Source: Xylographa opegraphella
Taxonomy: Eukaryota
Length of the DNA: 39,008 nt
Direction: 5' to 3'
Assembly: GCA_022813865.1 (NCBI GenBank)
Contig: JALDZX010000103.1
Location: 1 to 39,008, forward strand
Both the position numbers and the translations under genes were made by a program. Shown piece by piece: positions 4,112 to 27,046 of this stretch (position 1 is its first letter; each line of letters starts with the position of its first letter). Under the pieces are notes generated by a model. That model was not told the DNA's origin and did not search any database. It saw only the letters and a program-made list of their open reading frames with translations.

Positions 4112-5176
4112 CTTGACCTGCATTGGGTTCAATGAAGATGATTGATGGAAGTATTGAAAATTGGAAAAGAAGGTGATTAAGTCGTGCCGAGCTTACACGA
4201 TGGAAGGTAGGAAAGCTGTTCGGGAAGGACCGTCCTTTGCTTGGGCTGATGGTCAACTACAGATAGATCCACTTGATATCGACGAAACGAATGAAGGTGC
4301 TGGTTGCAGAAGGGAGGAAGGTGTGTATGAGAAGAAGGAAAGAAGGGAAATAACAGAAGAAGAGAAACTGAAAGCTGAAGGATTCCTGTAAGGAACCACA
4401 TTCTAGCGTTACGCTATGTGGAATAGATCTAGATGTCCATATGACCAGCAGGAGGAGACTTTGCCCATCCGAAAACTCGTTCCTCGAAGGTTGCGAGATG
4501 TGTCTTCTGAATCGAAATCCCGTGGCAGATCTTCCTGCCAGACCTCGAATGCGCTTGCTGTGGCTTCTGATTGGTTGATCAGGCGCGACGGCTGGGTGAC
4601 ATCGGTGGACCCTAAGTGCTAACGGATACAGGCTAGCGTATATACCCCGCTAGCAATATGCAAGATTGGCGAGCATCGTCGATCTCTCCTTGCATCCCGC
4701 CTTGATTGCTAGCCCTTGGCGTTTCCGGCCGCTAACCGAGCTTATCAAGACGTCAGCAATAACCGCTGTGACGAACTGTTGAAGCGTGCAAGAACGTAAT
4801 CTTTAGACTCGGAATGGTCGTAGACGTGTATCATGTACCTTATGTACCGAAGTAAACGCTGGCATGAAATGAATGAAAAGCCCAATGCTGTTGACAGAAT
4901 GAGTATTCGCACCGGTCAGGGCAGGAGAAGGCCTGGTAGTGCTGGCAATTCATTATCACCGCCCATTATGTAGATATTTGCGCCTCCCCAAATCCGCTTC
5001 CCCCCCACACCTATCTTATTATCAACCTGAAATGTTGTGCACCTTCATGCCAGAGCTTATTCAAGATAACATCGTCCGCTCTCGCGGTTGACAGCCCTCT
5101 AGACAAAATCTATTCCAGCGGAGCAGTCAGCCAGAAGGAAGCACATTACTCTTGAAGACAAGTTGATTACCACGTT

Positions 5177-5989
5177 ATGCGTACCACGCCTCTGCTGCTT
5201 GTTCCAGGTCTTGCCAGACGTAGCCTTGAAGAGTTCAAGCGGTTTGCGAAGATTGGTAAGTCGAGTAGCTTTGGAGGGCGTACACGGAAACTGATAAAGC
5301 GGTACGTAGCTATAAAGCAGGAGGGTCTTACAGTTCCAGCCGCTCCTTACCCACTGCTCGATTTCAGAGACCCGTCGACCATCGAAGTTTGTAAGACGAT
5401 GTCTGACGCCGATATTGGTGGCTATTCACAGGTCAACCTCATACATATTCCGGGCTCTGATACCACTCCTTCGCATGCTCGTTTCCACGGAAGTATATCC
5501 ACCGAGCTACCGACCAACCGTCCCCACATACAAAGAACTGGCTATGCGGCATGGAGAAACCGCGACCGACGAGGCACAATATTTGGCAAGAGCCTATGGG
5601 ATGTGGACCCATATGCTTATCTTGGTCTACGGGTCAAATCAGATGGAAGGAAATATTTTGTAAATGTACAAACAGAGACAATCGTACCCACGGACTTGCA
5701 TCAACACCGTCTCTACTCACGCCGACCAGGAGAATGGGAGACAATAATGATTAAGTGGAGCGACTTTGTCCGGACAAATCACGGGGTAGTTGTGGAACCG
5801 CAAATGGAAATGCTGAGGCAGAAGGTTCGAACCATTGGAATTGGTCTCATAGATAGAATACCTGGACCGTTCGATCTAGCTATCGGGAGAATATGGGCCA
5901 CTAACAATCCCAACAATGGTCACACGGGGACAGGGGAAGGGGATTCAGGCAGGAATGTGGAAGGGAAAGCCGAAGCCAGAACGACTTGA
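5177..5989 (+). CDS. CIA30: Complex I intermediate-associated protein 30 (NDUFAF1 family), one intron 5256-5309
   Basis: Motifs SDADIGGYS, ARFHGSIS, RTGYAAWR, LRVKSDGRKYFVNVQT, FVRTNHG; canonical GTAAGT..CTGAT..TAG intron; known MAT-flank gene. Confidence 0.93.
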   Translation: MRTTPLLLVPGLARRSLEEFKRFAKIGKSSSFGGRTRKLIKRYVAIKQEGLTVPAAPYPLLDFRDPSTIEVCKTMSDADIGGYSQVNLIHIPGSDTTPSHARFHGSISTELPTNRPHIQRTGYAAWRNRDRRGTIFGKSLWDVDPYAYLGLRVKSDGRKYFVNVQTETIVPTDLHQHRLYSRRPGEWETIMIKWSDFVRTNHGVVVEPQMEMLRQKVRTIGIGLIDRIPGPFDLAIGRIWATNNPNNGHTGTGEGDSGRNVEGKAEARTT

Positions 5990-6341
5990 AATTATTGACA
6001 CTCACAGTAGCCGTTATTGATCTTGATTGGCACAAAGATATATGGCTGAATTAGTAGCGAGACACTGAAGAAGTGGCGGTTTGTATTGTATTGTAATACT
6101 GAGAAGTATATGTTCTCAGCACAATGTTGCTCGATAGCGTCAGTCTACCATGCAATCCCTCAGGCTTTCCAAATCCCATCCTAGGAGCTTTTGCATTGCC
6201 GTCCAAATCCAAGCCATCCCTATTGTAGCTCCTGGTCCCCGTGATCTCATGAACGCCCACACTAAAGTACTTCGTCACACCGCCATTACACCCAATCCGA
6301 ATGCTGACCTGACAAGCGAGGAGCCAGATTCCTTCTGGAGC

Positions 6342-8938
6342 ATGTCTCGATACCTGAATGCTCCCAAATTGGGTCTTCTTGCGCTCATCTCTCTATATGG
6401 TGATTCTGTTGTTCCGACGGCAGCGATTGTTCCATTACTCTCATTTGTTGTTTCCTTTCTTTTACCACAAGCAATTGCGGGAGGGCGTCAATCTCGTGAG
6501 GAGGGATACTTTTCAGCCAGTTCCATCGGCGACATTCGGGAGGCCACTATCGTACATGCATCAGGTATTCCGGGTCGTACATTATGGGACCTGTTCCTTA
6601 AAAAGCTATGGGAAGTCAATTCTTTCGATCAATTGCATGTCTTCTTTGACTCTTTAGGTCTCCTCCTCCCAAAAAGTCCAGAAGAAGCACAGAAAGATGC
6701 AGACGTAAGACATTTGTCTCTTCCTGGTCCTATTCGATTCTCGAGAAATTCTCTCTTTGGCGTGTTTCTCAGGCGGGCCCAACTTGAATTCACAAGAATG
6801 CAGTTACATGACATTACTACTCTGTGGAAAAGCTTCGTTTTTTACAGGAATCCCACACTTTCTACCTGGAGGAGAAGAAACCCGGGTTCTGGACAAGCTA
6901 GTTATGATATCAATGATAGGCAAGAGGATTTCTACTTGGTATTGTATAGAGATACCATGGAAGCAGATCATAGCAGAGGGTACAACAGTGTTGAAGATAT
7001 CGAGAAGTTGTTGGACTTTCAGAGAGATCGGATGCAAGGTTTCAATCTGCAAGACCGTTTCGAGGTATTCATCACCACCACTGACTCTTGCAATTTAGCA
7101 ACCGGAAATAGGATTACTGAGGACATGCAAAGGCAACTCACGGAGATGATACAGGCCGGAACAAATGTCCCAGCCCTCTTTCATTATGTCAAGTTAGCTT
7201 GAATCACGGAGATGTCTATTCGGTTTTCTGACGTGCTATTAGTTTCCTAGACGCCTGGAAGTGTGGCGATTATCCATCGTCCTTTGATAATCTGCACCGC
7301 TTCTATGACTACACAATGCACAACCGGGACAGGACATTTTATCAATACGCCTTGCTTAATCTTGCAATATTACAAAAAGATTTTGGCTGTCTCCCAGAAG
7401 CAGTCACGGCAATGCGTGAAACTATTTCAGCGGCAAGGGAGAATAAGGACTTGGGCTGCCTGAACTTCAGCCTCTCCTGGCTACACCACCTTAGCAAGGC
7501 ATACCCCACAGAAATTCACGGAACACAGAAAGGTGGAGTGCTTGGGAATGACAGAGAAGCTCTTGTGTTCATGAAGGCAAAAGCCAAGGAGTCTGGTATG
7601 TGGGGTCTCCTAAGCACTACATTTTTGAGCGAGGCTGGACTAGCTCTCGTGAATGTGAGTAATCTTTGGCGTAGTTTGCCGTCAAGTTAAAGTTGAGTGG
7701 AGCAGGGAGAAAGTGTTTCTATGGCACTCGAGAACATCACGAAAGCGTCTTATCTGAGTTTCGTTAAAAATGTGCCTTCAACGGTCGCTGGCGAGTTACG
7801 GTTGCAATCGTCTGTATTCAGTAGGCTCGGTAAGCCGTCAGTGATAGCTCATCTGATATGTCTCTGACCACAAGCTTAGGCATAAGCTGTATTGCATGTT
7901 CTCTAGAAGAACTTTTGCTTGAATGTCATTTTGAGCACTCTTCAGCGGAGGAGTTACTACAAGCTTTAAGCAAAAGAGCTTGTGAGGTATGTTGATCCAA
8001 TCTTAAACGCTCGCCGTAGACTTATGATGAGATAGATGGCCCTCAAAGGTCGGCATGGTGATGCACTTGTGAGAATGGAAAATATAGATCCTGGTATCTT
8101 GCGAACCTTGAAGCATCGACAATGCTGGCGGACGTGTGTGGATCTGTTGCACCTTCAGCACGCTCTCCATAGGTGAAACCACTACATATCAGGAAGCACC
8201 CTTCGCTAAAAGTTCTTTTGTAGAGATGACCTGAATGCCGCAGAACATTTTCTATCTCAACTGCAGGCGAACCCGCCTTCAGACCGGGAGTTGTCCTTTC
8301 CAATCATGGTCCTTGAGGTAAACGTACAACTAAGGCAACAAAACTATAGCAATGCTATCCTGCTTCTTGAGAAGCACGCCGGAGAACTGCAAACTGAAAA
8401 CGCTGATATTCTCTTTCGGGTATTCTTGATGACGCTAAAGGCCCAGATATATAACCAAGCAGGATTAGCTCAGAAGGCGTTCTCTATCGCTATTCGAGCC
8501 GCATGTCTGGCTTATGAAGCGCGGCTTCTTCCAAGTCTCTGGCAAGCTGTCATAGTCCTTTGCCAAGTTTTGAACAGCCTTCAAGAATTCGACGGTGGCT
8601 TGAAGCTATTGAGAGCCATCATACCACAAGCGCTCGAATGCGAAGACTGCGAATTAGCAGGCACTGCCTTCTCTGCTCTTGCAGATACACATATCGGCAT
8701 CGCTGGGAAGATGCTTGATGGATCCATAAAGCAAAAGGAACATATGACGAGAGGGTTAGGATATCTAGAGATGGCTTTTGATGAGTATGCGCGAGGCAAT
8801 CTTCTTCGAGGTCAATGTGAAATGCTCGCGAAGAAAGCTACAATCCTGCACCTCAATGGGGATCTTGTACTTGCCAATGACTGCGCTGCTAGATATCTAG
8901 CTATACTAAAGACCGCAGACGACGAGGTACTTATGTGA
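6342..8938 (+). CDS. APC5: Anaphase-promoting complex subunit 5 (7 exons)
   Basis: Start MSRYLNAPKLGLLALISLY; motifs GRTLWDLFLKKLW, SLFGVFLRRAQLEF, DNLHRFYDY, YQYALLNLAILQ; introns 7039-7098, 7193-7242, 7655-7705 and three more give an open frame; conserved position next to COX13. Confidence 0.92.
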
Positions 8939-10417: not shown

Positions 10418-12628
10418 ATGGTTCCTCGCATCACTACCTGGAATGGTACCATTTCCCATCGCTGCCGTTTGAGAGCATAATGGGTTCGCTAATCGAAAGG
10501 CCAAATAGTCAACGGCATACGGTGCTCGCCAGATAATGCCTGGAGCGGTGGTCAATGATTTTGCTGATCAGCGGCGAGCAGGAATCCATTCTCATATCAG
10601 CCATGGCGAGACAAGAGAACTCTCGCTGTGAGTGCCACCCGACAGTGATCACATTTTCTGGCTAACCGCGATCTAGGCTATGTTCGATATCCTAGAAGCC
10701 GATATTGTGGTCTTCCAGGAGACGAAAATTCAACGCAAAGACCTTCGAGACGATATGGTTCTGGTCCCCGGATGGGACTGCTTCTTTAGCTTCCCGAAGC
10801 ACAAGAAAGGTCCGGGTCACATGACGATCAAGATCTATCCAATAACTAAGTACTGCAGGCTATTCCGGCGTCGTGATATATACTCGTCAATCTGTCTGCT
10901 GTCCGATACGCGCCGAGGAAGGCATCTCTGGTGTCCTGTGTCGCCCATATTCGTCCACAAGTTTCTCAGATCTTCCTGAAGACCAGCAAATCGGTGGCTA
11001 TCCTACCATGGCCCAGGCCTCAGTTGCACAAGACTTGACAAATTTAGCAACCGACTTTGTGACCTTGGACTCAGAGGGTCGCTGCGTAATTCTCGAATTC
11101 CCAGCATTCGTGCTTCTCGGAGTTTATAGTCCCGCGAATCGCCATGAAACTAGGGATGATTTCCGCTTGGGTTTTCTCAATCTTCTCGACATCCGGGTTC
11201 GCAACCTTGTTTCAATGGGCAAGCGTGTCTTTCTGACCGGTGACTTGAACATCTCAAGAGAAGAGTTGGATACCGCCAATGCAGAGAGCGCAATGCGGAA
11301 GAATAGCATAACTACAGTTGAGTATTTTTCATCTCCTGCTCGTCGGCTTTTCAACCAGCTCCTCGAAGATGGTAAAGTCTATGGAGAGAGAGATCATGGA
11401 AGGGAGCGCGCAGTACTTTGGGACATTTGCCGCGGCTTTCATCCGATGCGGAAGGGTATGTTTACATGCTGGGAGCAGAAAGTCAATGCAAGGCCAGGAA
11501 ACTTTGGTGCGAGAATAGACTATGCCCTCTGCAGCATTTCCATGAAGGACTGGTTCTCTGATGCAAACATTCAAGAGGGTCTCATGGTTTGTCTTCTCGT
11601 TATCAAGACCCGCGTAACGCCTAACTTAAGCCCAGGGGTCGGACCATTGCCCTGTTTACGCGACGATGAAAGATGTAATAGCCATCGATGATATAAGAGT
11701 TGACACCAAAGATGTAATGAATCCTCCGGGGATATTTCGTCAAGGTCAGCGACAGCAAGAACTCTCTACGAAGGACATGTTGCCTTTATCTGGGAAGTTA
11801 ATACCGGAGTTTGATCGGCGACAAAGCATACTTGACATGTTTAAGCGAAACTCAACTTTACCTGTGCAACAAAGGCTCGAGATAACGAATCAGTCCGAGA
11901 CGGACTCAGCGATGGTACTCTCCGCCAATGGGATCCACGAGCTCGATGTCAATACCACTACACTAAAAGCGAATGTTGCAGATTATGACGCCACTGAAAA
12001 CCGTCCAGATCGAACTCATAGAGGGACTCCTTCGGAAACTCCTTCGGAAAACAACAGGAGGCAATCTCTTGAACAACAAAGCAAACGGCCATCGAAGCGT
12101 GTAAAGTTGGGCTCCGCAGCACCAGCAGGCTCGAATCAGATAAAGGGCCAACGAAGTCTAAAAGGCTTTTTCAAACCTGCATCTACAGAAGCTACGAATT
12201 CAGCGAAGATGCCAATTACCCAAAATCCATCTCCAGAGTCTCCACTGTCAAGGCCAGTTCCTACCACGGACTCAATACCGAGTAATCCTGCCTATACTCC
12301 TGTATTCGTGGATAGACTCATCACTTCATTACCTTCGTCTGAATCTCCATTTCCCAAAAGCAATGGGTCTGTGCCTCTTACTTTACACAATCCGATCGAG
12401 AGCAAGGAGTCCTGGTCAAAGCTATTTAATAAGCCGGCACTACCCCGCTGTGAGGGCCACAACGAGCCGTGTATCAGTCTGGTGACAAAGAAGAGCGGCA
12501 TTAATTGTGGGCGGTCCTTCTGGATGTGCCCTCGCCCACTGGGTCCAAGTGGAGCCAAGGAAAAGGGGACCCAATGGAGGTGTCAGACATTTGTATGGGG
12601 CAGTGATTGGAATTCGAAAGTGAATTGA
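10418..12628 (+). CDS. APN2: AP endonuclease / DNA lyase Apn2 (6 exons including 13-nt microexon 10509-10521)
   Basis: MVPRITTWNVNGIRNPF, FQETKI, GYSGV, GDLN, RIDY, GSDHCPV, PIP-box QRSLKGFF, C-terminal GRF zinc finger; canonical MAT flank. Confidence 0.96.
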
Positions 12629-13062
12629 ATCACAGAACCTTTAGGTTTCATTTCACAGCCATAATGTAATTTCTAGCTGTCGACGCCCCACCCACTAACG
12701 GCAATGAAGTCCGAAATTCCTAGTTCCATGAGCTATCGGTCCCACACCGGGGCGATGCTTTTTACTGAAGAGTTTTTCACATTGATTATGCAGAAGCAAA
12801 ACTTGCGATGTGAACACATCAACCGTTTTGTTCGTTCATACAACACGGTAGTGCCTTGTGGTTTGTAAACTTTAAGCTAATCGTCAGATTAGACTCCAAG
12901 AGAGTCGGTACAAGCAATGCACAGTCTCAGCAGAACAAAGAAAAATCGCTCTACTACTATCCGATGTCTCAGAATTTGCAACCTTCTCATTGCTTGGCGT
13001 TTGACATCTTGTGTGACCAAACAGCCGTTCCACCCAGCAATATGATCTCCTATACTAACAGC

Positions 13063-13170
13063 CCAGCGCTTCACTTCTTTGCTGGGAAGCCAGTCATTGC
13101 AAAGATCGCACAGCTTCCAGCACTTCACTTCTTTGCTGGGAAGCCAGTCATTGCAAAGATCGCACAGCTT
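13063..13170. repeat. Tandem duplication, 54 bp x 2
   Basis: 13063-13116 and 13117-13170 differ at one base (G/A). Confidence 0.95.
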
Positions 13171-13862
13171 CGAGCGTTCATTCTCGGAGATGTTGTATAT
13201 AGGTTGAGCGTCATCACTAAATAGCTACAAATTACCTAAATGAAGTAGCACCAGCATTGCTGTGGAGGACTGTTAGGTTCGGACTTGCATTCAAGATGTG
13301 TCATCATGCCGGTTCTCTTCCTATGCTCTGAGTCAATGACAGCTTGGGTTTACAAGGGTCATTGGAAATTGAATGGTTCGATTGTAAGAGCAGTGTCAGA
13401 ACTAACGCTGTCTTCGATTTGCAACGGTCAACGCGATGGTTGTCGTCTACCTTATGTCGAAAACGGATTCGCTGTGTCAATGCGGAGTATTTCATTCCCA
13501 TTGTACAGGGAAACTGCTATTCTGTATAGGATATGTTATAGTGTACATTTTAATGGATTTGTTCAATGTTGGACTTTTCAAATTTGGAGTTGGCTACTGG
13601 TTACTATTTAATAGTTCGACCTCTTATGTTATCACGTTTTGGCGTGAGGTGTTGTCAATGTTTAAGAAATTCCTTCACACCCAAAGTTTCGTAGTTCATT
13701 CACAACTTATATTTTCTCCAAAACACTAAGATAGATCGATCGATGAGTCACACAAATTATGCTTAGGCTGCTGGCTAGTAAATCCCTGGGGCAACTCTTG
13801 TTAAGGCAGTACACCTCGTTTTCAGATCCATACAATAACAGAGCACTCACTTGTATTCGAAC

Positions 13863-15118
13863 ATGTCTTCTCAGGACGATGATGGCGACTGGGAAACCGA
13901 TTCTGAAGCCTCTCCAGAATCAGACGACATCGAACCTTTAGACTGGGACATTTTTTTCGATACAAAGCCGGCTGAGTGGTTCCGAGACTCGAAAGGGTAC
14001 ACTCAATACAAAGACCAAGACAAAGGCCACATTGCAGGTCAGCACATCTTCCCACTATGTCAGACGAAGCTGACCTTCACAGAACACCCTGAGCACAGTA
14101 CACCATGTGGCTCCAAATTTCTGCAACATATGTTGCGCGATCTTTTTCTCATATTTGAGCTATTGGTCTCATCGTTCAGGATTTCAGACTGCCGAGGCCG
14201 GAGTTGTCCTAAGCAGCATTTGCAAGGAGATTAAGCGTCTTCAGAACCATCGCGAGCTCTTCCCAACCGAATATGTTGGTGAACAGTTCTTGGGTAATGT
14301 TTACGATATTTGTGGCTGGGTGGAGGAAGCATTTGGGTTCTTTCAAGAAGAACTCAATATGTGGCACAAGTTGTTTGACCTGGAGCTTGCAGAGATCAAA
14401 GCAGCCTCTTGGCCAACATTCCGGGCTGGTCGAAATCCCTGGCATCAGTTCCTTCATAATGGAGCTCCAGGTCATAGGGTTATCCCGAAGCAGGCCCCGA
14501 AAACAGAGAGCATGCAAATAATTCCTCCAGGTGGGCTCAATCTTCTCCAAGCATGGCAAACGGAAATCGAAGATATCCTGAAAACTTACGACGAGGTGAG
14601 CAAGCTACGTTTTGAATCTTCTGCGCTCAATGAAATTAAATAAGACCTGACTTTGTACTAATTTCTAGAGTAATAGCATCTAAGAATACAGCGAATTCCT
14701 TCCAAAGTTGTCGGTGATAAAAGGTCTTACTTGGCTGTAACTGGAAACATCCGCGTAATGGGAACGGTATATGCCCAATCCCAGGCATTCGGGTTAGGCT
14801 AACCTTTTGGGAAGTTCGCTGATGCAAATGGAGCCCCGATAATTGTCCCAGTGAGTCTCCACGTCACGCTGATCGTGCTCTGTGTCACATCTGACATACT
14901 AAGGAATCGTCCACGTTTTTGAGAGACTTTTCCACGAAATCAACTATGCCTTTAACGCAGCTATCTCAAGACTTTGGTAAGCATAAAGACGTTATTGGAA
15001 TAGTAGTATCATGTATGGCTAACCGAATGCAGAGGCATTCGAAGACAGGGTGGGACATTCGAATTATGGAACTAACTATGTCTGTGTCAGGGAGGGCCGT
15101 GTATCTCCAAGGAAATAG
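13863..15118 (+). CDS. Auxiliary MAT1-1 idiomorph gene (positionally MAT1-1-7/MAT1-1-4-like), ~300 aa, 7 exons, no recognisable domain
   Basis: Exons 13863-14037, 14083-14127 (or -14097), 14180-14595, 14677 (or 14692)-14766, 14815-14850, 14904-14976, 15033-15118 join in frame with branch-site/AG signals; acidic N-terminus MSSQDDDGDWETDSE; lies between APN2 and MAT1-1-1. Confidence 0.72.
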
Positions 15119-15531
15119 CATGTCGCAAAGACACAGCGCAATACCTTGACGGGACAATCTGCGCAGTGTTATGACCTGAGCTTAATTAGCGAACTGTAGA
15201 AATTCACATCGTGAAGTGAAATTAGGTAGCAAAGTATGACCAATAGCGGACGAGCTGTTCTTTGTTGTGAATGTATTAGGCCACCAACCTTGTGAATATT
15301 TTATGTGATTTCGCGAACAACACAACCCTCACACTATATTTCTTCCCAGCCACTTCTCTATCTCACTCTCTTCTTACCTCTTCATCTATCCTCCTTCCCA
15401 ACATCTCTTCAATTCCTCGATGCTTCAACTTTCAATCAACTCTTTGTTCAAGAAGATAATTTCTTGTTCATTCTTGACTCTCGAGTATACCCCCAAGGCG
15501 CAAACTTAGCTCATATCGACTCCAATCAAAA

Positions 15532-16658
15532 ATGCTATTCTCAGCAGTAGCATCACAGTCTCAAGCATCCAAGAACATCGTCAAGCAATACGGCCCAACC
15601 AAATCCGCTTCAGCGGTCTACACTGCTCGTCAGTTTGAAGCTTCTGCCGACTTGGACATGGCCAATGTTAACAAAGGTGATGTGAACATTGCCAAAGCAA
15701 AAGCCACTAGACCTTTGAATTCATTTATGATCTTTCGTAGTAAGAGAGTACTCAATATAATCATACACGGTGAACTAATGTTTCATAGGCCACTACAGCC
15801 AGATATTCAATGGCATGCAGCAGAAAGATATCTCTTCAAACGTGACCAACCTTTGGAAGCATGATCCGTTCAAGGCCAAGTGGACAATCCTAGCTAAAGC
15901 ATATTCCGTGATTCGAGATGCCAGCGGTAAACAGAACACACCTCTCAACAAGTTCATTTTACTCAATGGCCCCTATATTGGGATCCTTTCTTCTGAAAAC
16001 TATCTCAGCACTCTTGGCTGGGAACTATGTGTCGTCGACGATCAGCTTAAGCTGTTTCGTATGTCTGAGGTGGAGTTCGCTTCACTTGATGAGGGTTTTC
16101 GCACCACGAACTTGTCAGTCGACAACATTATAGCCTATAGCATCGACATGGGTTATGTCGCTGCAGAATGTAGTGGTCTACCTATGCAGCCCAACGAGCC
16201 ATCCATGGTCATGGCATCATCCTCTGTTCAGCGTGCTCCTGCCAAACATGGATTCTCAGCACGGAGGCTCCACAGGAACAAACATTGTTGCGGTAGGCAT
16301 GTCCACTACCATCGCCACGGGCTCGAACGCAAACATCAGCGGTTCAAACATTGTTCTCAATACTCCAACTACTGCTACCACTGGTGCGACTAATGACGCA
16401 TGGCTCGCTGCTACAATTCAGCAGATAATTGACGAGGACGTAGCAGACGAAGCTGCGGAATCTGTGGCTGACAACGATGACATCAGCCTAATCATGCTTA
16501 GCAGTGAATTCTATGCTCTCGAGACTGAATACCCCTTCAATGAAGAATTCGAGCCTGATCGTCCTGCTTTCGAGTTCGATCCATACATGGGCGATGCGTT
16601 CAATGCCTACAACATCGGAGACTTTACGGAGGGAAATGCCTTTGCATTCCAGTACTAA
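15532..16658 (+). CDS. MAT1-1-1: Mating-type alpha-box transcription factor with apparent +1 frameshift near 16244-16246
   Basis: RPLNSFMIFR-S-HYSQIF across the conserved alpha-box intron 15740-15788; QKDISS..LWKHDPFKAKWTILAKAYSVIRD. The spliced frame stops at 16393, while the acidic/aromatic tail (EYPFNEEFEP..FDPYMGDAFNAYNI) is in the +1 frame ending 16658. Confidence 0.93.
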
Positions 16659-17763
16659 AAGGTTTGACACGAGCACAACCAAAGCAAGTGCCCCACTAAT
16701 TGTAATCTAGATTGCCACAAATTCCAAGTCAACCAAAGCTTGCGTATTTTCGATCGTTACAGATAACGAGAAGTCGTCGAAATTATCGGAGCGCATGACC
16801 TTCTGAGGTTCGCATGGAATGTTGTTCGCTTTATGAAATTTGACCAATTGAAGTAAAATGAGCAGGGGGCTGAGAGGGTGTGAGAAGAAACACGAACACA
16901 AGTGGTGCCGCTACCCATATTTGTTTATCGATGCAACACACCAATAGATAGATACCTAGATAGCTCAAGCATCAAAATTAACCTGGCAAGGTGAATGTAC
17001 CGCTCAGTTCTTGACGTAAGGTAGTTAGTCTGGTTTATTCCGTAGCCTAACTGGTGATTGTTTCCCGAGAGGTAATTGCGACACGATTGAGACTGGACTT
17101 TGGCAACGGCTTATTTCCTTTCTTCATTGAACAAGATAATTGTATCGACGGGCCGCACAGTTATGCAAGGGCATAGATAAATACTTAGAGTTGGTACGGT
17201 GAAAGTTGGCCACGATTTAATTGACCTTCTCCGATAAAATCAGTCGAGCAAGACGCCACTTACGGTCTACAAAATCAATAACAACGAGTGCCGTGCTTTG
17301 TATATAGGTGATCAAGCCTGGAATTGTGTACGGAAGTGCTTTGGTTCTAGTGAGTCGTCCGAACTCGTTGCTTTCCCACTATCGAAACGGTCATGGTAGT
17401 CAGGATGTTAGCCACAGACTGTAGCCGGAACCATTACGAAACACAAGCATGCAGGATATGGCTGTCAACAGCAAAGGGCCACCCAGTGCAGCCGTGATGA
17501 CATTTTCGAGTAAGCCTTGATTTATAGGCAACCGCAAGCACTTCCGAAGTCGCCTCACTTGGGTACAGTGAGGTCCCGAGACCTTTATAATGCCTCCAGA
17601 GTGGTACATTGTACATGAATGCTATAATGTCATGGAAGGTTCCAGCGTGTGATTTTAGGTATGAAGGTGAGATTCTGCGTTCCACCTCTGTATTGTAGAA
17701 GTCCTTGCATACGCATGGCAGACCTCGCCGTAACCTCCATATTACCGATGCAAATTTCGCTAT

Positions 17764-20700
17764 TCATTCCTCTTGGTACGAAATCTTCCGCATCTCCCCT
17801 AGTCTTTGCCGTGCTTGTGCAAGGTTGTTTTCTAGCTGCAGAATCTCAACCTAATTGTGCTCAGTAGTAAGCTTGCGTTCCTGATAAGATAATGCAGATG
17901 GGTATCGAACCTGTTGCTCCATCTCTCGGACCTTGAATTCGTGCCCGCTCATTTTTCCATAGTCCAGCTCCTCGCCTTCGTCCCGATTTCTTTGGCTGAT
18001 AATCTCTTGCACCTGCCTTACCAGCCCTCTGCAAGATTTACCGACGGCTTTACTGGCTTCTTCCAAACGGTCCTGCGCCCGCGACCCAAAGTTCGCTTTG
18101 ACCCTACTGGCGGCCACAAGTTGCGCCGTACTTGCAGCGACGTCATTGCTTGCCACAATGAGCTGCTCCGGACTATTTCTCCTGCTGATGACACCATCCG
18201 CGGTTTCGATCAGAATATTGGTAGAGGAGGCGACGGCCTTCGCGGCACTTATAAGTCCCTCTGTCCAGCGATTATTCTTCTTGTAGAATGCTGTTCTCGA
18301 AGAAGAGCCTCGACCTTCTTTGACAATCTCGTGCTGCAAAGCAGTTGCAGCCTTGATAAGCTGGGCAATAGCGTTAGTAACGGCAATGGCGGCCTCTAAT
18401 ATACTATCATGAATCTTGAGCTCGTACAAGCTATAGCCGTCCCTAGGTTTCTTCCTAAGCTTGTTCAATTTTTCGGCCGCAGCATCAATGGCATTTGCCG
18501 CGCTCGTCAATTCTCGGTCGACCATATCCCCTAGATCACCACTTTGGCTTGAAAGCTTTGCTGATTTAGGTGCGAAAGCATCAGCAAGCTTAGAGAGTTT
18601 CTGCAGGTTCATCTGTACCTCGTGGGCGTTGTTGATCACCACGTCTGTCTTCTGGATCGGTTCTAAGCCCTCAAGGCGGAATGATTGGAGAGCGCGAAAG
18701 AACGTTACACTGGCCTGCGCAGATTGTCGTGCAGCATTAATAAGCTGGTCAGCTTTCTTTTCTTCTGTCGCGAACCGGCTTAGTCCTTTCGTATTCGATA
18801 GAACATCGGCAATTGAACCTGCGAACACGCTGACAGTCCGAATAATCTCCGCATGAGGGCTGTTAGGACCATCGGCAATAAAGTTGTTGAATGCGGTAGA
18901 GAACTCTGTTGCACTCGAGGATGCCTTTTCAATCTGGGAAAGCACATAAGATGCTGAAGCGTTCTGGTTTCCAGCTTGCATGGTCGACTCAAGTTCGTAC
19001 AGTGCATCATCCACTCTCTGAACACCACTTTGTAGCACAGAATCAATAATATCGTTTATTTTCTGAATATTGCCGAGTAACACGGCGTCGATTTGATCGT
19101 CTAAAGCTTTGTCGGTTTCTCCACCATGCTATACCTGTTAGCTCCTGGCGATCTTCAACATTTCCAATATAATTACCATTTGCAGTTCGTGTAGATCCAG
19201 CAACGCTTGATCCATAGCAGATTTTGATATTTCCAGCTCTTCCTCCTTCTCTCGCAGAGCGCGTTCGAGGCTGCTGTCGCGTTCTCCATATTTTGACTGG
19301 AAGTCGTCCAAAATCCGCGATTTGTTCTTGCACGTTGTTAGAAAAATATTGATAACTTTCTCCAAGATACATTACCCGCAGGGCTTCCTCCAGATCAGCC
19401 ATCTCCCTATTATACTTAGCAATCATGGATGAAAGTTCAAATCCTTTGGATCTTTCCACGTCATCCGCTCTGTCCAAAGCCATTCGAAGTTCTCGTTTCA
19501 GCTTGTCGAGCTCTTCTCGGTTTCCACCGTTAAGTCGATCTTTTTCATGAAGAGCTCGATCGCGCTCCCGAATCATATCAGCCAGCTCGAGATTCTTGGT
19601 CTTGATCTCGCGCTCCAGCTTTTCTCGCTTTTCGATAGCTTCTTGTGCTGATGCGGCTCTGAGCTGAACGCTCTTGAATTTCTGTAACAGATCTAGATGT
19701 TCTGTCCGTAATTGGGAATAGAGCTTTGCGAGAGCTTCGTACTTGGAGCGCCACGTGTTTACCTGTTCCTGTAGAGCTCTTACCTGGTCATCCTTTGATT
19801 CATTTTGTTGGTTGAAAGTGCTATTAAGTTGGTTGAATTGTGTCTCAAGATCCTTAACCCGCCGATCATACTGTTGTAACATAAGTTGATCCTGTTCGTA
19901 TTGAGCCCTGGCATTGAGATTCTCCCGCTCCAGCTCAACCATACGACCGCTAGTCTGTTGCTGGTATTGCTCTCGCATGAGTTGCTCATCTGCTAGCCTT
20001 TGTTGTTCAGCCAGGAGTCGCTGCTGTTCCTCAAAATCCCGTTGCGCCTGCTGCTGCTGTAGTTGCTGCTGGTACTGCTGCTGATTCCATTGCTCTTGCA
20101 GTTGTCGTTGCTGGGTCTCATAATCTTCTTGCTGCCGTCTTTGAGAGTCTTGCCAAAATTCATTGATTGGTTCCGGTTCGGTAGTTGCAGCGGCCTGTTC
20201 TCGTAGCGGTGAAAGGTCTCGAGCTCTCGGCAGTTCATTCTTCGGTCTTTGAGGTAAGGCGGGGCGTTCTTCGTCATCGGCGAGTAAATTTGGAGGGTCC
20301 TGAAGTAATTTCGGCACGCTAATCAGGCTTGTGAGATACCGCAGATTTGAACATTCGTAATAGAACTTGAGCAAACGGTAATATTGAGTATCGTATCTGC
20401 TCCGCAAGGGCTCCAGTGCATCCTCATCGCCAGTTGCTAGCAGCAGATAAGCATTGGATGATATACAGGAAGGCTACAGATCTCACTGGTATGCATAGCA
20501 CGCAACATAGATGTGATAAACTTATAGATTCCATAGCTCTCTTGAACCAAAGGTACCAAAGCTGAGATTCTACATTCATTGTTCGCTCCGCTCCGAAAAT
20601 GTGAGAAGATGAGTTTTTGAAACGAGTCTATCTGATCCTGAAGTGTCATCAGATCAGAGATGGTCTCGTATCTGCGATTCGTCAGCTCTGCAGTATACCA

Positions 20701-21583
20701 GTCATTTCACAGTGCACTCGCCCTTCGTTGGGGTCATTGATGGATTTGAGACTAATATATTCCTCGTATTCGAAGAGACCTGCGTTGGACTTTAGCGCAT
20801 AGCTCAATCGACTTCCGCGACGCATTACCATTGAATTCAGGATGCTGTTTATGAAACGAGAGTTTGGCGAGCAGGAAATAAACGTATTCCTTAAGCAACG
20901 GTCCGTACCCTAGCATACTAAGCTTCTTCCAATCATGGCAGACCTAGATCTGATTATACCTCGCACACCTTCGCCAGATACTCCTCGTGTCAGGCTTTCC
21001 AGCCAGCTAGTATTTGGCTGTGCTTCCCTCACGGCAATCGGATGTCCTTCCTGCAGTACTTTGTGTATAGTGATCAATGCCTTGAAAGTCTGTACTTCGT
21101 CTGCAAGGATAGGCTGCCTATAAGAACAGAAATTTTACCATCAGCGTTGACAAAATCACGGTATCCCTACTGAAAGGACTCAACAGGGTCGAGCTTTTGT
21201 AGACTCACACTTTCATGCCCGCCCAGAATGACAGCGACGACTTGTGATCCCAAGTGTAAACAATACACGCCCGAACATGCTTTCCTAGTCCCTAGTGAAT
21301 ACCGCATAACATCTCAAGTGGTAAAGAGAGACGATTAGCGTACGTTTGGGAGCGGTTTCTTCTGCATTTCCGAACACAATCAGTACTGGTCACAAGAGCT
21401 GTATGTGCAGGAGCACTCGCCGATACTCGTAGCTTTCCTAATGTTAATGGCTAAGTCTGTTTCTGATCTGCCCATACGTCAAATAATGGCACGAATGCTT
21501 GCTTGTCACCTGCGCATAGAGCAAACTGCTTACCTCCCCAGGTCGACATTGCGCGCAGTTGTAGAACCATAGCCACTGGACAT
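17764..21583 (-). CDS. SLA2: Cytoskeleton assembly/endocytosis adaptor Sla2 (ANTH, coiled coil, talin-like I/LWEQ), multi-exon
   Basis: IRKATSIEETAPKRKHVRACIVYTWDHKSS; Q-rich linker; FYKKNNRWTEGLISAAKAVA, STAQLVAASRVKA; last exon VEILQLENNLAQARQRLGEMRKISYQEE*; includes GC-AG intron 21420-21362 and 18-nt exon 21361-21344. Confidence 0.96.
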
Positions 21584-22382
21584 GGCGGATCACGATCACA
21601 GTTCATGTGGTAGATTCGCAACGTAGCCGCTGTCTGGAGACAAATACTGCTGGAACAAGCTATCGAAAGAAGAGGTGATGGGCTAAGAAAGCACGTTGAA
21701 GTGGGGTATTTTTGGGTGGTTATGGTATCGCGAAGATTGTTTCACAATATAAATAAGATAGTTTTGAGGACCTTCAGGATACAAAAAATCCTTGTGTAAA
21801 ACTCGAGTTTAGCGGCGTTATATATATTCACGTAAAGCCGCGTAAATAGGATATCGGCCCTCCCGCGCCTGAATGCGTTCAACTTTAATTGTTTTTACAA
21901 CTAAGGGCCTGTTCTGCAACTTCGGGTAGGTTTAGTAAATTTTAAGCTACTAAAAATTCAGTAAATTGCGAACCTATCAAAATATTCGATAAATTCGAAT
22001 AGATTCGAACACGTAATTAAAACGTTCGGTAATTGTTTTAATATTAATAAATAAAATTAATAAAATTACGCGATTTATATTATTTATTAAATTAAATCCT
22101 GAAATACTTCGAAATAATCGTATATCGATGCAAAGATTTTATAGATTTAAATTTAGTTAAACGTATTTTATATAAATATTGTATTAAAAAATTTAGTAAT
22201 AATAAAATATATGTTTTGACGTCGTAATTATTTCAACTTTTTATTTTTATTTTTATAAGAAATTTCTTTAAATTATTTATATATATTAATATAAAAATTA
22301 TTTAAAAAAGTTTTAAAATTATATGTTAATTAAATTTGGATTATAATTTTAATTTGAATAAAAAGCCTTCGCGATTTAACAG

Positions 22383-22565
22383 TGTGACGGCTATGACATC
22401 AGTCACAAGTAATAGGGGTCGGGCTGGATCAGGACTAGCACCTTNAGTATATAGTCTCGCCCATGGAGCAGCCTCACCGCTTCTCCATCTTAATCTGGGT
22501 TGAAATCGTCCACCTTAAGCTTACGTTCTAGGCGTGCTTGCGTGGTGAGTTGATAAGCCATAACA
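22383..22565. mobile_element. Solo LTR, family A copy 1 (183 bp)
   Basis: TGTGA...TAACA ends; 5-bp TSD AACAG on both sides; near-identical to 25213-25395. Confidence 0.9.
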
Positions 22566-24777
22566 AACAGCGATTAAATCTTTTAATACGAGATTCAAAA
22601 CGGTAGCGTAAAATACGATAATATCGTTAATATAAACTTAAAATGATAAATTAAAAATTATTAATAAATCATTACTTTTTAAAAATAAATTAAAAAATTT
22701 AAAAAAATTTTAACTTGCGTAAAAAGATATTGATTTAAACGCTTTCGATTTTAAAAGAAATAAAACAATTAACACGATAACGTACTTTAATAAAAATTTA
22801 AAAAGGTTATTAGTACTTAATTAATAGCGATTAATTAAAAAAATATATTCATAATTTTTAAAATTATTCAAAAACCGCTTAAACTCGGTAAAAAAAAGTT
22901 ATAAATACGAAAATTTTAATCGAATTATTTAAAGAATTCGCGGCGATAAAAAACGTTATTTGAATTATAAAATCGATATTGACCGTAAAATTAATAGTAA
23001 TTATAACTAATTTCGATAGTTTAATAGTCGATTTAATTATTATAAACATATTTATATTTATAATTAAGGAGAATTTATAAATAAATGTTATTTTCGCTAT
23101 CGCTACTTTTATTTTTATATTAGATATTTTAAACTTTTACGTATTTTCGTTTTTAGCGGCGTTTTTTTTCGTTCGAGAATTTTTCGCAGACAAAAAAAAT
23201 ATTTATAATTATATAATTATAAGCGATATATAAATTTATTAATATTAAAAACGCGATCGTTGCGCACGTAATGAAATTACAGAAAAAAATTAAAAAATTA
23301 ATAATACGTTTATAATTACAGCGCGCGCGAAAGAATAAAAATTCGTTTAATCAAAATTTCGAGTTTTTTTTTTTAAAAAAAAAAGGTAAATACGAAAATT
23401 TATAATTATTTAAATCAGGAAATAAAAAATAAATTTATTTTATTAAAAAAAACCAAAAAAATAATAATAAATAAATTAAATAAATTATTATTAATATATA
23501 TAACGTAATCGTTTTATATCAATCAAGCGATTTTAATCTCGTTTTTTATTTAATTTAATCGTCGATAATAATTAAAAAAATATAATTATTATCGACGACT
23601 ATATTATTTTTTGTTATTTGATTTAATTTTTTTAAAAATGGTCTTTCGAATAAAACTGTATAATTTATAAAAAATAAATATAAATTTTATTTAATTCCGA
23701 AAAATGTATTTTAAACTAAATTATAAAATTCGAAATCATTTTTTTTAAATATTAAAAATAAGCTCGATCGCGTTGCTCAGGAAAAAGTATTAAAAATTAA
23801 AAAAGAAATTATTTTCGAATTTGTGTTAATTTATTAATAAAAATATACGATAAAAATAATTTATTTAACATTTATAATTCTTTTTTTCTGTAATTAATAT
23901 TGAATTTTTTTTTAAAAAGTTAAAAGTTAATTACGATTAACATATTTTATATTCGCGAAATAACATTTATTTTACAAAATTAAAATTTTTTTATTCTAAA
24001 TAATATTATTGTATATGAAATTTTTTTATTTAAATAAAACGTACGTAAATTACAATTTGAAATTATGAATCGCGAGTACGTTTTGTAAAGAATATCTTTT
24101 ATAATTTCGTAACGAGATCGTCGTTTTCGCCGTAAAAAAAGTATTAATATAAATTTTATTTAAAATATTTAAATAATTCGCAAAGTATTTATACTTCTTT
24201 TTACTTTTTTTAAGCCCGGGCGAAAAAGGTAATCAGCAAAAAAGAAAAGCGAAAATAATAAAAAACGAAGGAAATTTAATAAAAATAACGTTAAAAATTA
24301 TAAAAAAACGAAAAATTTAATAATAATAATTATTTATTTATTGAGATATAAATTTATAAAAATAAATCGTAAAAATAATTATTTTAATATTATATTAAAA
24401 AATGTATTAAAAACGTTTCGTAACGTTTTATAATAATTCATCGTGATTTACGATCGCGAGGAAAATCGCGAATTTTTTTTTATAAAAAAACGCGTAATTT
24501 TTTAAATTCGTTTTTTATCTTTAAAATAAATAAATAATTATTTAAAAATACGCAAAAATATTCAAAAAACGATCGTTTTGCGCGTTGAATATTTATAAAA
24601 TATTAAATGAATAATATATACGATTTCAATATAATACAAATTATATTAAAATAATTTCGTATAATAAATATTATAATAATTAATAAATAAAATAAATATT
24701 AAAAATAATCGTTTAGTTCATAAAAATTTGTCGTAAAAATAAAGCGTTTATAATTACCCAAGAAAATATATTGAATT

Positions 24778-24969
24778 TGTTGAAAATCCAGGGGGTTAGC
24801 GCAGCCTGTGTTGTCGGCTTGTACTATAGCCAATTAGGACTAGCTTAGTACAGGACTCGAAGAGTCTTCTGAAGCTTCCGCTTCAGGAGAACTCTTCACC
24901 TTCTTAGTGATTAAGCAATGCACTGCTATCTGCTGCCAAAACCCCTGTGCCTAGTGATTAAATTCAACA
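24778..24969. mobile_element. Solo LTR, family B (192 bp)
   Basis: TGTTGAA...TTCAACA inverted ends; 5-bp TSD GAATT on both sides; GC-balanced island in RIP'd DNA. Confidence 0.88.
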
Positions 24970-25212
24970 GAATTTATAATAAAAGTAACGAATATTTAAA
25001 AAAACGGTAAAACTTTTCTCATAAATTTTTATTTCAATACTTTCGAAGATATTAAAGCAGTATATAATTTTTAATGTATTAAATTATTTTAATTGCAACG
25101 TAATTGCTTTAAGAATAAAAAAGTGTAAATCGAATATCAATCGTTAATAAAATAATATTTCCGCTTTGATCAGTACAATATTCCCTCTTTAAATTTAATT
25201 TTAAAGGGTTTT

Positions 25213-25395
25213 TGTGACGGCTATGACATCAGTCACGGGTAATAGGGGTCGGGCTGGATCAGGACTAGCACCTTTAGTATATAGTGTCGCCCATGGAGCA
25301 GCCTCACCGCTTCTCCATCTTAATCTGGGTTGAAATCGTCCACCTAAAGCTTACGTTCTAGGCGTGCTTGCGTGGTGAGTTGATGAGCCATAACA
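25213..25395. mobile_element. Solo LTR, family A copy 2 (183 bp)
   Basis: TGTGA...TAACA ends; 5-bp TSD GTTTT on both sides. Confidence 0.9.
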
Positions 25396-25611
25396 GTTTT
25401 AACTTTTCACAACGTTATATATTAAGTGAGAGTTTTTTTCGCGCTGGATTACCTGGTTGTAGCGTAATTGCTTTGAAAATAAAAAAGTTTAAATTCAACT
25501 TTGATCGTGAATGGCGCAGTATTTCCGTGTCGAAATTAATACAATATTCTTTTTTTAAGTTTAATTTCCCCCGGGCCTTGATTTTTTACAACGTTGCATA
25601 TTAAGCGAGAG

Positions 25612-27046
25612 TATGCTGCGGCATGGGTTGGGTTAACCCACTGGATTATGAATTGGGTTGGGTCTGGGTTGAGTTCTGGGTTGGGTTGGGTTAACCCAGT
25701 CGCATAATTACATAAAATTATACTATACATAAAATTTATATAATACATTTTATAGTCATTTTTATAATAGTCGGGAATTTTTACGTCTACGCGTATATTA
25801 CACGCCTGCGTGGCCTGCACGCATTCACCACGCCTGCGAGCCTGCATGGGCTACGCGTATTTCATAATGATGGGCGCATTTTGCAGGCCTGCGCGCATTT
25901 CATCATAATAAACGAATTTCGCAGGCCTGCGCGCATGTTACACGCCTGCGGGCCTGCGTGATCTGCGTATATATTCGCTACGCCTGCGGGCCTGCATAGT
26001 CTGCGTAACCTGCGTACATTATATTATACTAGGCGAATTATACAAATTTATACGTATTCTGCAAGCCTGCGTGTATTTTGCGCTGCATTTTATTGATATA
26101 ATTATTATTATTTTTACAACTTTGCGCATTAAAGGCCTTCGTTTGCAATAAAAATTTGATTTATTAAAATCGAAAAATCTTTGCCGAACGCTAAATATTA
26201 TAATTAATTAAATATCGTAAAGCTTGCGTAAATTAAACCTTGAATTAACGTCGCTTAAAATTAATCTTTTTGAAATTCGATTTTTAAAATTAAAATATCG
26301 TAAACGAAGAATTTCGAATTCTGCGTTGCATTTTACAACGCAGATTTGTAATTCAAATTTGTAAAATACGCGCAGACCTGCGAAATTCGCCTATTAATGA
26401 AACACGCGCAGGCCTGCGAAATACGCCTATTATAATGAAATACGCGCAGGCCCGCAGACCCGCAGGCGTATAACATGCGCGCAGGTCAGCGAAATGCGCC
26501 TATTATGATGAAATACGCGCGCAGGCCACGCACGGCCCGCAGGCGTGGCGAATATACACGCAGGCCTGGTAAATACGTGCAGGCCTGCGAAATACGCCCA
26601 TTATGATGAAATGCGCGCAGGCCCGCAGGCGTATAACATGCGCGCAGGCCTGCGAAATGCGCCCATTATAATGAAATGCCCGCAGGCCCGCAGGCCCGCA
26701 GGCGAATAACATGCGCGCAGACCTGCGAAATGCGCCCATTATAATGAAATATGCGCACGCTACGCAGGCCCACAGGCCACGCAGACGTATAATATGCGCG
26801 CAGGCCTGGTGAATGCGTGCAGGCCCACGGGTCACGCAGGCGTAAAAATTCGCGACTATTATAAAGATGGTTATAAAACTTTATTATACAAATTCTATGC
26901 ATAGTATAATTTTATATAATTATGCGACTGGGTTAACCCAGCCCAACCCATAAAAAAACCCAACCCAACCCACAAATAACCCAACCCAGGGTGGGTTGAG
27001 TTATCAACTCAATAACCCAGCCCAACCCAACCAATGCCGCAGTGTA
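25612..27046. mobile_element. Non-autonomous hAT-like foldback element (1435 bp)
   Basis: 8-bp TSD AGCGAGAG (25604-25611) / AGTGAGAG (27047-27054); termini TATGCTGCGGCAT vs rc TACACTGCGGCAT; inverted arms of several hundred bp with GGGTT/AACCC arrays and GCAGGCCTGC-type internal repeats. Confidence 0.8.

Follow-up and report, generated by a model that had tools for sequence, protein, structure and literature searches.

In heterothallic Lecanoromycetes such as Letharia, Cladonia, Stereocaulon and Lepraria, MAT1-1-1 is described as lying between APN2 and SLA2, and the MAT1-1 idiomorph combines an auxiliary gene upstream on the same strand, a PF04769 domain, an intron within the alpha box and a conserved C-terminal motif (PMC10512270, PMC11515122). 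The MAT1-2 idiomorphs of these fungi are reported to carry a diverged remnant of the last MAT1-1-1 exon (PMC10512270, PMC11515122). Damaged genes of sexual reproduction have also been described. In Inv+ isolates of the homothallic Sclerotinia sclerotiorum, a 3.6-kb inversion and a retained intron leave a truncated MAT1-1-1 with a premature stop and an alpha domain cut to 15 residues, and the fungus still fruits, so that fertile strains can evidently carry a shortened alpha-box gene (PMC3574095). In sexual Stereocaulon, a single-base frameshift of the meiosis gene hop2 is reported across the genus (PMC11515122).

The MAT1-1-1 gene of Xylographa opegraphella described here shares the location and the architecture of its Lecanoromycetes counterparts. 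Unlike its five close relatives and 25 scorable loci from metagenomes, it has its C-terminal third out of frame with the start codon. The lesion differs from that of the S. sclerotiorum Inv+ isolates: it is a small indel that spares the complete alpha domain and eliminates the tail alone, in a locus that is MAT1-1 only. As in the MAT1-2 remnants, a 3' part of MAT1-1-1 would persist as untranslated DNA adjoining SLA2; those remnants are reported as highly diverged and devoid of an alpha box, whereas the tail found here is undiverged and directly follows an intact alpha-box gene. What it shares with hop2 of Stereocaulon is that a sex-related gene of a lichen fungus is broken by a small indel; the gene is another one, and the allele comes from one strain of one species. 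A full-text literature search on MAT1-1-1 frameshifts in lichen-forming fungi returned no description of this allele, the term frameshift being applied, among the passages listed, to hop2 and within a cited software title, and the papers naming the species, judged by title and the start of the abstract, include none on its genome or mating type.

The analysis covered one stretch of 39,008 nt (contig JALDZX010000103.1 of assembly GCA_022813865.1), hereafter the window, which is a usual ascomycete mating-type locus with the order APN2, auxiliary gene, MAT1-1-1, SLA2:

5156-5989, forward strand: CIA30 gene, from a Pfam scan of long open reading frames (ORFs)
6138-8938, forward strand: APC5-like gene, from the same scan
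10846..12628, forward strand: APN2 (DNA lyase), the upstream flank of the locus, two ORFs with a Pfam Exo_endo_phos match at 8e-10
12814-14643, forward strand: ORFs without a Pfam family
14074..14643, forward strand: auxiliary MAT1-1 gene, largest ORF of 189 aa, identified by tblastn, upstream of MAT1-1-1 and on the same strand
15532-16658, forward strand: alpha-box gene MAT1-1-1, Pfam PF04769
17767..21583, reverse strand: SLA2, the downstream flank, with Pfam I_LWEQ (1.1e-49) and ANTH matches and tblastn support from three SLA2 orthologues
after SLA2 in window order: a PH-domain gene and a family-B DNA polymerase, from the Pfam scan

The two APN2 ORFs also gave a weak match to the GRF zinc finger (4.7e-4, below the curated cut-off). 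The Pfam search of 14074-14643 found no family for the 189-aa ORF. Its homologues precede the MAT1-1-1 match by 1-1.7 kb in 25 of the 51 related metagenome loci (tblastn, E 2.5e-17 to 1.9e-7), on the same strand as MAT1-1-1 in 21 of them and on the opposite strand in four (L033-L036). By its position, this auxiliary gene is probably the MAT1-1-7 of the lichen literature, whose name and position are given in PMC11515122 and PMC10512270. Further forward-strand ORFs stand beside it at 12814-14234. No HMG box was matched, either by the 22 ORFs of 110 aa or more in the whole window or by 22 ORFs of 55 aa or more in the interval from APN2 to SLA2, so the locus carries the MAT1-1 idiomorph only. At its other end, neither strand of 20500-26500, about 6 kb past the 5' end of SLA2, has a stop-free frame that reaches 110 aa; this stretch consists either of many short exons or of non-coding DNA. 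A 79-aa forward-strand ORF over the 3' end of SLA2 (17628-17864) has a sub-cut-off Pfam match to circovirus ORF4 (E 9.4e-4, 19.8 bits against a cut-off of 25), which we take for chance.

Within MAT1-1-1, which starts at the ATG at 15532, the following parts could be delimited:

15532..15739, forward strand: exon 1, 69 codons and 1 nt, whose last residues (..TRPLNSFMIFR) open the alpha box
15740..15788, forward strand: intron 1, the alpha-box intron, 49 nt, donor GTAAGA, branch CTAAT, acceptor TAG
15789..16243, forward strand: conserved frame A part of exon 2, the remaining alpha domain followed by SMVMASSSVQ
16235..16246, forward strand: the break, 10 nt between conserved Arg and Asn codons against five codons in all five relatives
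16244..16393, forward strand: out-of-frame extension of frame A, 49 His/Cys/Arg-rich codons (KHGFSARRLH..YHWCD), then TAA
16245..16658, forward strand: conserved continuation in frame B (NMDSQHGGSTGT..), 137 codons, stop-free to the normal stop
16488..16643, forward strand: acidic/aromatic C-terminal motif (DDISL..EYPFNEEFEPD..FDPYMGDAFNAYNIGDF), out of frame with the ATG

The position of the alpha-box intron is generally conserved across Pezizomycotina. Here its branch A lies 10 nt from the 3' end according to a motif scan, and its removal gives ..MIFRSHYSQ.., the same as in all aligned relatives. The translation of exon 1 equals that of the public gene model (protein P0004, 341 aa) and aligns with the relatives. 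In exon 2, PF04769 (MATalpha_HMGbox) is matched at E 1.2e-28 with 100.3 bits against a cut-off of 28.1; the match takes in exon-2 residues 2-126 and profile positions 57-177 of 194, the earlier part of the domain being encoded by exon 1, and it stops about 25 codons ahead of the frame break. The conserved part of exon 2 is 78-79% identical to the two closest relatives. Frame A runs from 15789 to 16393, where the TAA at 16391-16393 closes a protein of 270 aa. Frame B is open over 16134-16658, both frames thus being open across 16134-16393. An alignment carrying X at the break and a codon listing both place the change from A to B at 16244-16246 (gccAAAcat).

The first-pass annotation of this stretch had called MAT1-1-1 frameshifted, with its alpha box intact and its acidic tail out of frame, and the PF04769 match and the alignment of five relatives agree with that description. 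The translation likewise confirms its protein of 270 aa with a His/Cys/Arg-rich tail ending at 16393. Its figure of 358 aa up to 16658 for the rejoined frames also fits, since 221 residues are read in frame A as far as 16243 and 137 in frame B starting at 16245. By its alpha domain, its location between APN2 and SLA2 and its alpha-box intron with standard signals, the gene is an orthologue of MAT1-1-1. One continuous frame from the alpha box to the C-terminal motif, the remaining property of such genes, is missing, and as written it is a disrupted copy.

A comparison with relatives makes the nature of the disruption clearer. The proteins of X. pallens, X. trunciseda and X. bjoerkii and two further proteins were aligned with the read-through of the window, an alignment with congeneric MAT1-1-1 proteins having already been proposed as a check by the first-pass annotation. 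Frame A is conserved up to ..NEPSMVMASSSVQRAPA, and frame B from NMDSQHGGSTGT.. to the last residue. The 49-codon extension of frame A is absent from all five aligned relatives, each of which reads through with 19 residues (57 nt) between ..EPSM and the next H/Q/N/R, against 52 nt in the window. The difference amounts to a net loss of 5 nt, and not necessarily to one extra A. Removing one A, as initially suggested, does rejoin the frames formally; as an account of the historical change, one superfluous base is not needed. The indel may go back to a 5-nt deletion, to deletions of 3 nt and 2 nt, or to a 6-nt deletion with a 1-nt insertion.

Beyond the break, the 132-aa tail retrieved the two nearest relatives by phmmer with E-values of 1e-60 and 6e-62, and matched 40 of 53 MAT1-1-1 homologues, mostly through query residues about 77-128 against their C-terminal ends. 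These matches identify an old conserved C-terminal motif and reflect true homology rather than chance; its consensus in the alignment of homologues is EYPFNxxFDP..FDPFMGxxFNxFD. A scan of metagenome contigs provided 51 related MAT1-1-1 loci of 30-67% identity, none of them congeneric. Exon 2 and the C-terminal motif share one stop-free frame in all 25 scorable loci, a set with many near-duplicates that comes down to about 10-11 distinct ones, the other 26 of the 51 being partial. As far as these alignments tell, a single intron followed by a long exon 2 is the usual structure of the gene, and the window is the exception.

The public databases nevertheless hold a seemingly intact version of this gene. 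The 341-aa protein P0004, annotated as a hypothetical protein of X. opegraphella and 100% identical to exon 2, joins ..NEPSM to HGGSTG.. and hence removes 16208-16259:

16208..16259, forward strand: 'intron 2' of the 341-aa model, 52 nt, GTCATG...TCTCAG

From the species name and the style of the locus tag, P0004 appears to belong to the data set of PMC9098629. That paper describes lichen genomes, Xylographa included, assembled with SPAdes or ABySS and annotated with ab initio calls by funannotate (Augustus, snap, GeneMark-ES, GlimmerHMM), and the word RNA has no occurrence in its main text. The first-pass annotation had named 16208-16259 (52 nt) and 16226-16259 (34 nt) as possible rescuing introns with weak donors and no clear branch site. 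Both intervals exist and restore the frame, and the former coincides exactly with the intron of the public model. The shorter one was rejected as an intron at only 34 nt.

Typical fungal introns begin with a donor resembling GTRNGT and carry, 10-40 nt before the 3' end, a branch site of the CTRAY kind. The signals used by this genome were gathered from six SLA2 introns, delimited by their spliced score against an orthologue, which replaced an earlier ab initio enumeration over the whole window whose 1528 candidates were uninformative. They are given with donor, branch and its distance from the 3' end, and acceptor:

21208..21118, reverse strand: SLA2 intron, GTGAGT, CTGAT at 23 nt, TAG
20828..20780, reverse strand: SLA2 intron, GTAATG, CTAAA at 12 nt, CAG
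20721..20672, reverse strand: SLA2 intron, 50 nt, GCGAGT, CTGAC at 10 nt, CAG
20486..20437, reverse strand: SLA2 intron, GTGAGA, CTTAT at 11 nt, TAG
19375..19327, reverse strand: SLA2 intron, GTAATG, CTAAC at 11 nt, AAG
17910..17851, reverse strand: SLA2 intron, GTTCGA, CTTAC at 17 nt, TAG

The ambiguous SLA2 junction J2b and two introns flanking a micro-exon near 21300-21400, read by eye, were excluded. For 20721..20672, the GC-AG solution scored best (232), in a near tie with a GT-AG alternative at 20717..20665 (GTGCAC, 226). Together with MAT intron 1, this small sample of seven introns, one of them the near tie, has a branch-like CTNAN 10-23 nt from the end in all seven and G at +5 in five; lengths range from 49 to 91 nt and fall within 49-60 nt in six. 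With two GTAATG donors and one AAG acceptor, the splice signals of this genome seem fairly permissive.

Measured against this sample, 16208-16259 has the GT..AG ends and the length of an intron and departs from the consensus at donor and branch. Its donor GTCATG has C, no purine, at +3 and T instead of G at +5. CTNAN is absent from the region 6-45 nt before its 3' end, and the single occurrence in the interval overlaps the acceptor. The first-pass description of weak donors and no clear branch site was correct. Its GC content (0.52, against 0.31-0.53 in the real introns) does not separate it from them. The interval corresponds to coding sequence in the relatives, which read through it with neither an intron nor a gap: it encodes VMASSSVQ, its GT belonging to a Val codon and its AG to a Gln codon, and these residues are conserved. 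Of the underlying MxMA(S/T)(S/T)xQ motif, M and A recur in at least 90% of the 40 homologues aligned. An intron at this position occurs in none of the five close relatives and in none of the 25 scorable metagenome loci.

The ease with which such a rescue arises was assessed by enumerating all frame-restoring GT/GC..AG intervals of 30-399 nt around the break, and by simulating 2000 one-base insertions into five intron-free coding ORFs of the window. The real break is surrounded by 267 frame-restoring intervals. Among them, 16059-16140 (GTATGT) and 16114-16189 (GTCAGT) have good donors; they were rejected, being devoid of a branch motif and deleting conserved residues of the alpha domain. For 1906 of the 2000 simulated frameshifts (95%), at least one GT..AG interval of 40-100 nt brought the frame back; the donor was at least as good as GTCATG in 1756 cases and of the GTRNG type in 641. 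With chance rescue at this frequency, ab initio models can mask pseudogenes. Judged on its signals and its conservation, 16208-16259 is probably no real intron, and the 341-aa model is best explained as an ab initio rescue that skips the break by means of a chance GT..AG interval.

The reading we favour, with moderate confidence and from sequence comparison, is that of a genuine frame-disrupting indel in a young allele, whose transcript would be spliced at the alpha-box intron only and would yield a truncated protein of 270 aa. Among the options raised in the first-pass annotation (a loss-of-function or dominant-negative allele, a cryptic intron, recoding, an assembly error), a true truncating allele is thus the best supported. 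Its main competitor holds that 16208-16259 is really spliced, wholly or in part, to give the 341-aa protein, as a recent 'intronization' compensating the indel; the product would lose 17 codons (VMASSSVQRAPA, the break and NMDSQ) and keep the C-terminal motif. The interval has in its favour GT..AG ends, a length of 52 nt that is 3n+1 and restores the frame exactly, a size typical of the introns of this genome, pyrimidines before the acceptor (TTCTCAG) and a tail free of decay. The donor in itself does not decide, since two SLA2 introns use GTAATG and also do without G at +5. Against splicing stand the C at +3 of that donor and the missing internal CTNAN, which all seven reference introns possess, as well as the removal of a motif kept by nearly all homologues, the lack of any intron there in the close relatives (5/5) and scorable loci (25/25), and the finding that nearly every simulated frameshift offers a comparable interval by chance. 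The evidence put forward for it is an ab initio gene model. We therefore regard splicing as unlikely, and the cryptic intron first suggested as more probably a predictor's rescue, even if the public model uses exactly that interval. Slightly less likely again is a specific route of intron birth, in which a 5-nt deletion was followed by the use, as a 52-nt intron, of a chance GT..AG pair provided by the conserved Val-Met and Gln codons, at the price of the conserved 8-residue motif and to the benefit of the C-terminal one.

The frame change might also be absent from the genome of the organism and stem from sequencing, from the library or from a minority variant that became the consensus. One public DNA run carries all sampled words of the window. 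A contig of 9269 nt built from this run, with a mean word depth of 165.8, reproduces 15000-17200 of the window letter for letter and without gaps. An assembler error, as envisaged in the first-pass annotation, is made unlikely by this independently built contig. The run is the only one with the sequence, the contig probably derives from the window's own reads, and contigs drop rare variants; the identity observed would also fit an artefact of the library, a second allele in the minority or a mutation that arose in culture. A second assembly procedure nonetheless returned the same letters at that depth, the site offers only AAA and no long homopolymer, the relatives differ by a net 5 nt and not by a one-base slip, and the genomes paper names the short-read assemblers SPAdes or ABySS (PMC9098629), all of which makes an artefact very improbable. 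Programmed +1 ribosomal frameshifting near 16244, which would join the two frames in translation, we find scarcely credible. A shift anywhere in 16134-16393 would give a stop-free product, both frames being open there; yet the Ty1/ABP140, Ty3, antizyme and EST3 motifs are all absent from 16134-16393, GCC AAA CAT would allow no +1 re-pairing and is not directly followed by a stop or an evidently rare codon, and no relative needs a shift, so that the shift would have arisen together with the indel. The recoding once proposed for this gene finds no support in the sequence.

Under the favoured reading of a truncating allele, a net loss of 5 nt relative to the congeners, about 25 codons past the alpha domain, would have broken MAT1-1-1, and the primary transcript would be spliced at the canonical alpha-box intron alone. 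The predicted 270-aa product would begin with 221 native residues that include the complete DNA-binding alpha domain and end in 49 unrelated His/Cys/Arg-rich residues; it would be devoid of both the variable Ser/Thr-rich linker and the acidic/aromatic C-terminal motif. The make-up and conservation of this motif suggest an activation or partner-binding module. The truncated protein may therefore bind DNA and activate poorly, as a hypomorph or null and possibly as a competitor for DNA binding. The stop would fall in the last exon, and exon-junction surveillance is therefore not expected to degrade the mRNA.

The age of the allele was approached through protein-level counts of unique residues in the alignment of six sequences. 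The window has 19 unique residues in 143 columns before the break and 14 in 115 after it, and thus no extra decay of the tail; the corresponding fraction in the other five lineages is 0.03 to 0.17. A stop-free tail of 137 codons with no extra decay indicates that the tail is still translated or that the indel is recent, two situations that these data do not separate. An intact tail with a complete motif, also expected under continued translation, and the 52 nt of the interval, a typical intron length here, are points against truncation. The frameshift allele is known from one individual, and the indel may be strain-specific or acquired in culture.

The finding mainly corrects a public gene model. 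The 341-aa protein is probably wrong and conceals a frameshift, and a survey of lichen mating systems that relied on it would count the locus as intact. Should the allele prove real and widespread, a lichen fungus with a MAT1-1-only locus would possess an alpha-box regulator lacking its conserved C-terminal motif, and either the motif would be dispensable or mating of the strain would be impaired. Because laboratory crosses of lichen fungi are very difficult, a natural separation-of-function allele is useful. The case would be of greater interest if the truncation were fixed in the species or if 16208-16259 were spliced; a spliced cryptic intron would represent a rare and datable intron gain, at the level of a species, in a mating-type gene. 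The gene call of P0010 (296 aa), the nearest relative outside the Xylographa-like group and 50% identical in the alpha domain, retains the MVMASSS motif and lacks the conserved C-terminal one at its end; either a further truncation or an erroneous gene call could account for this.
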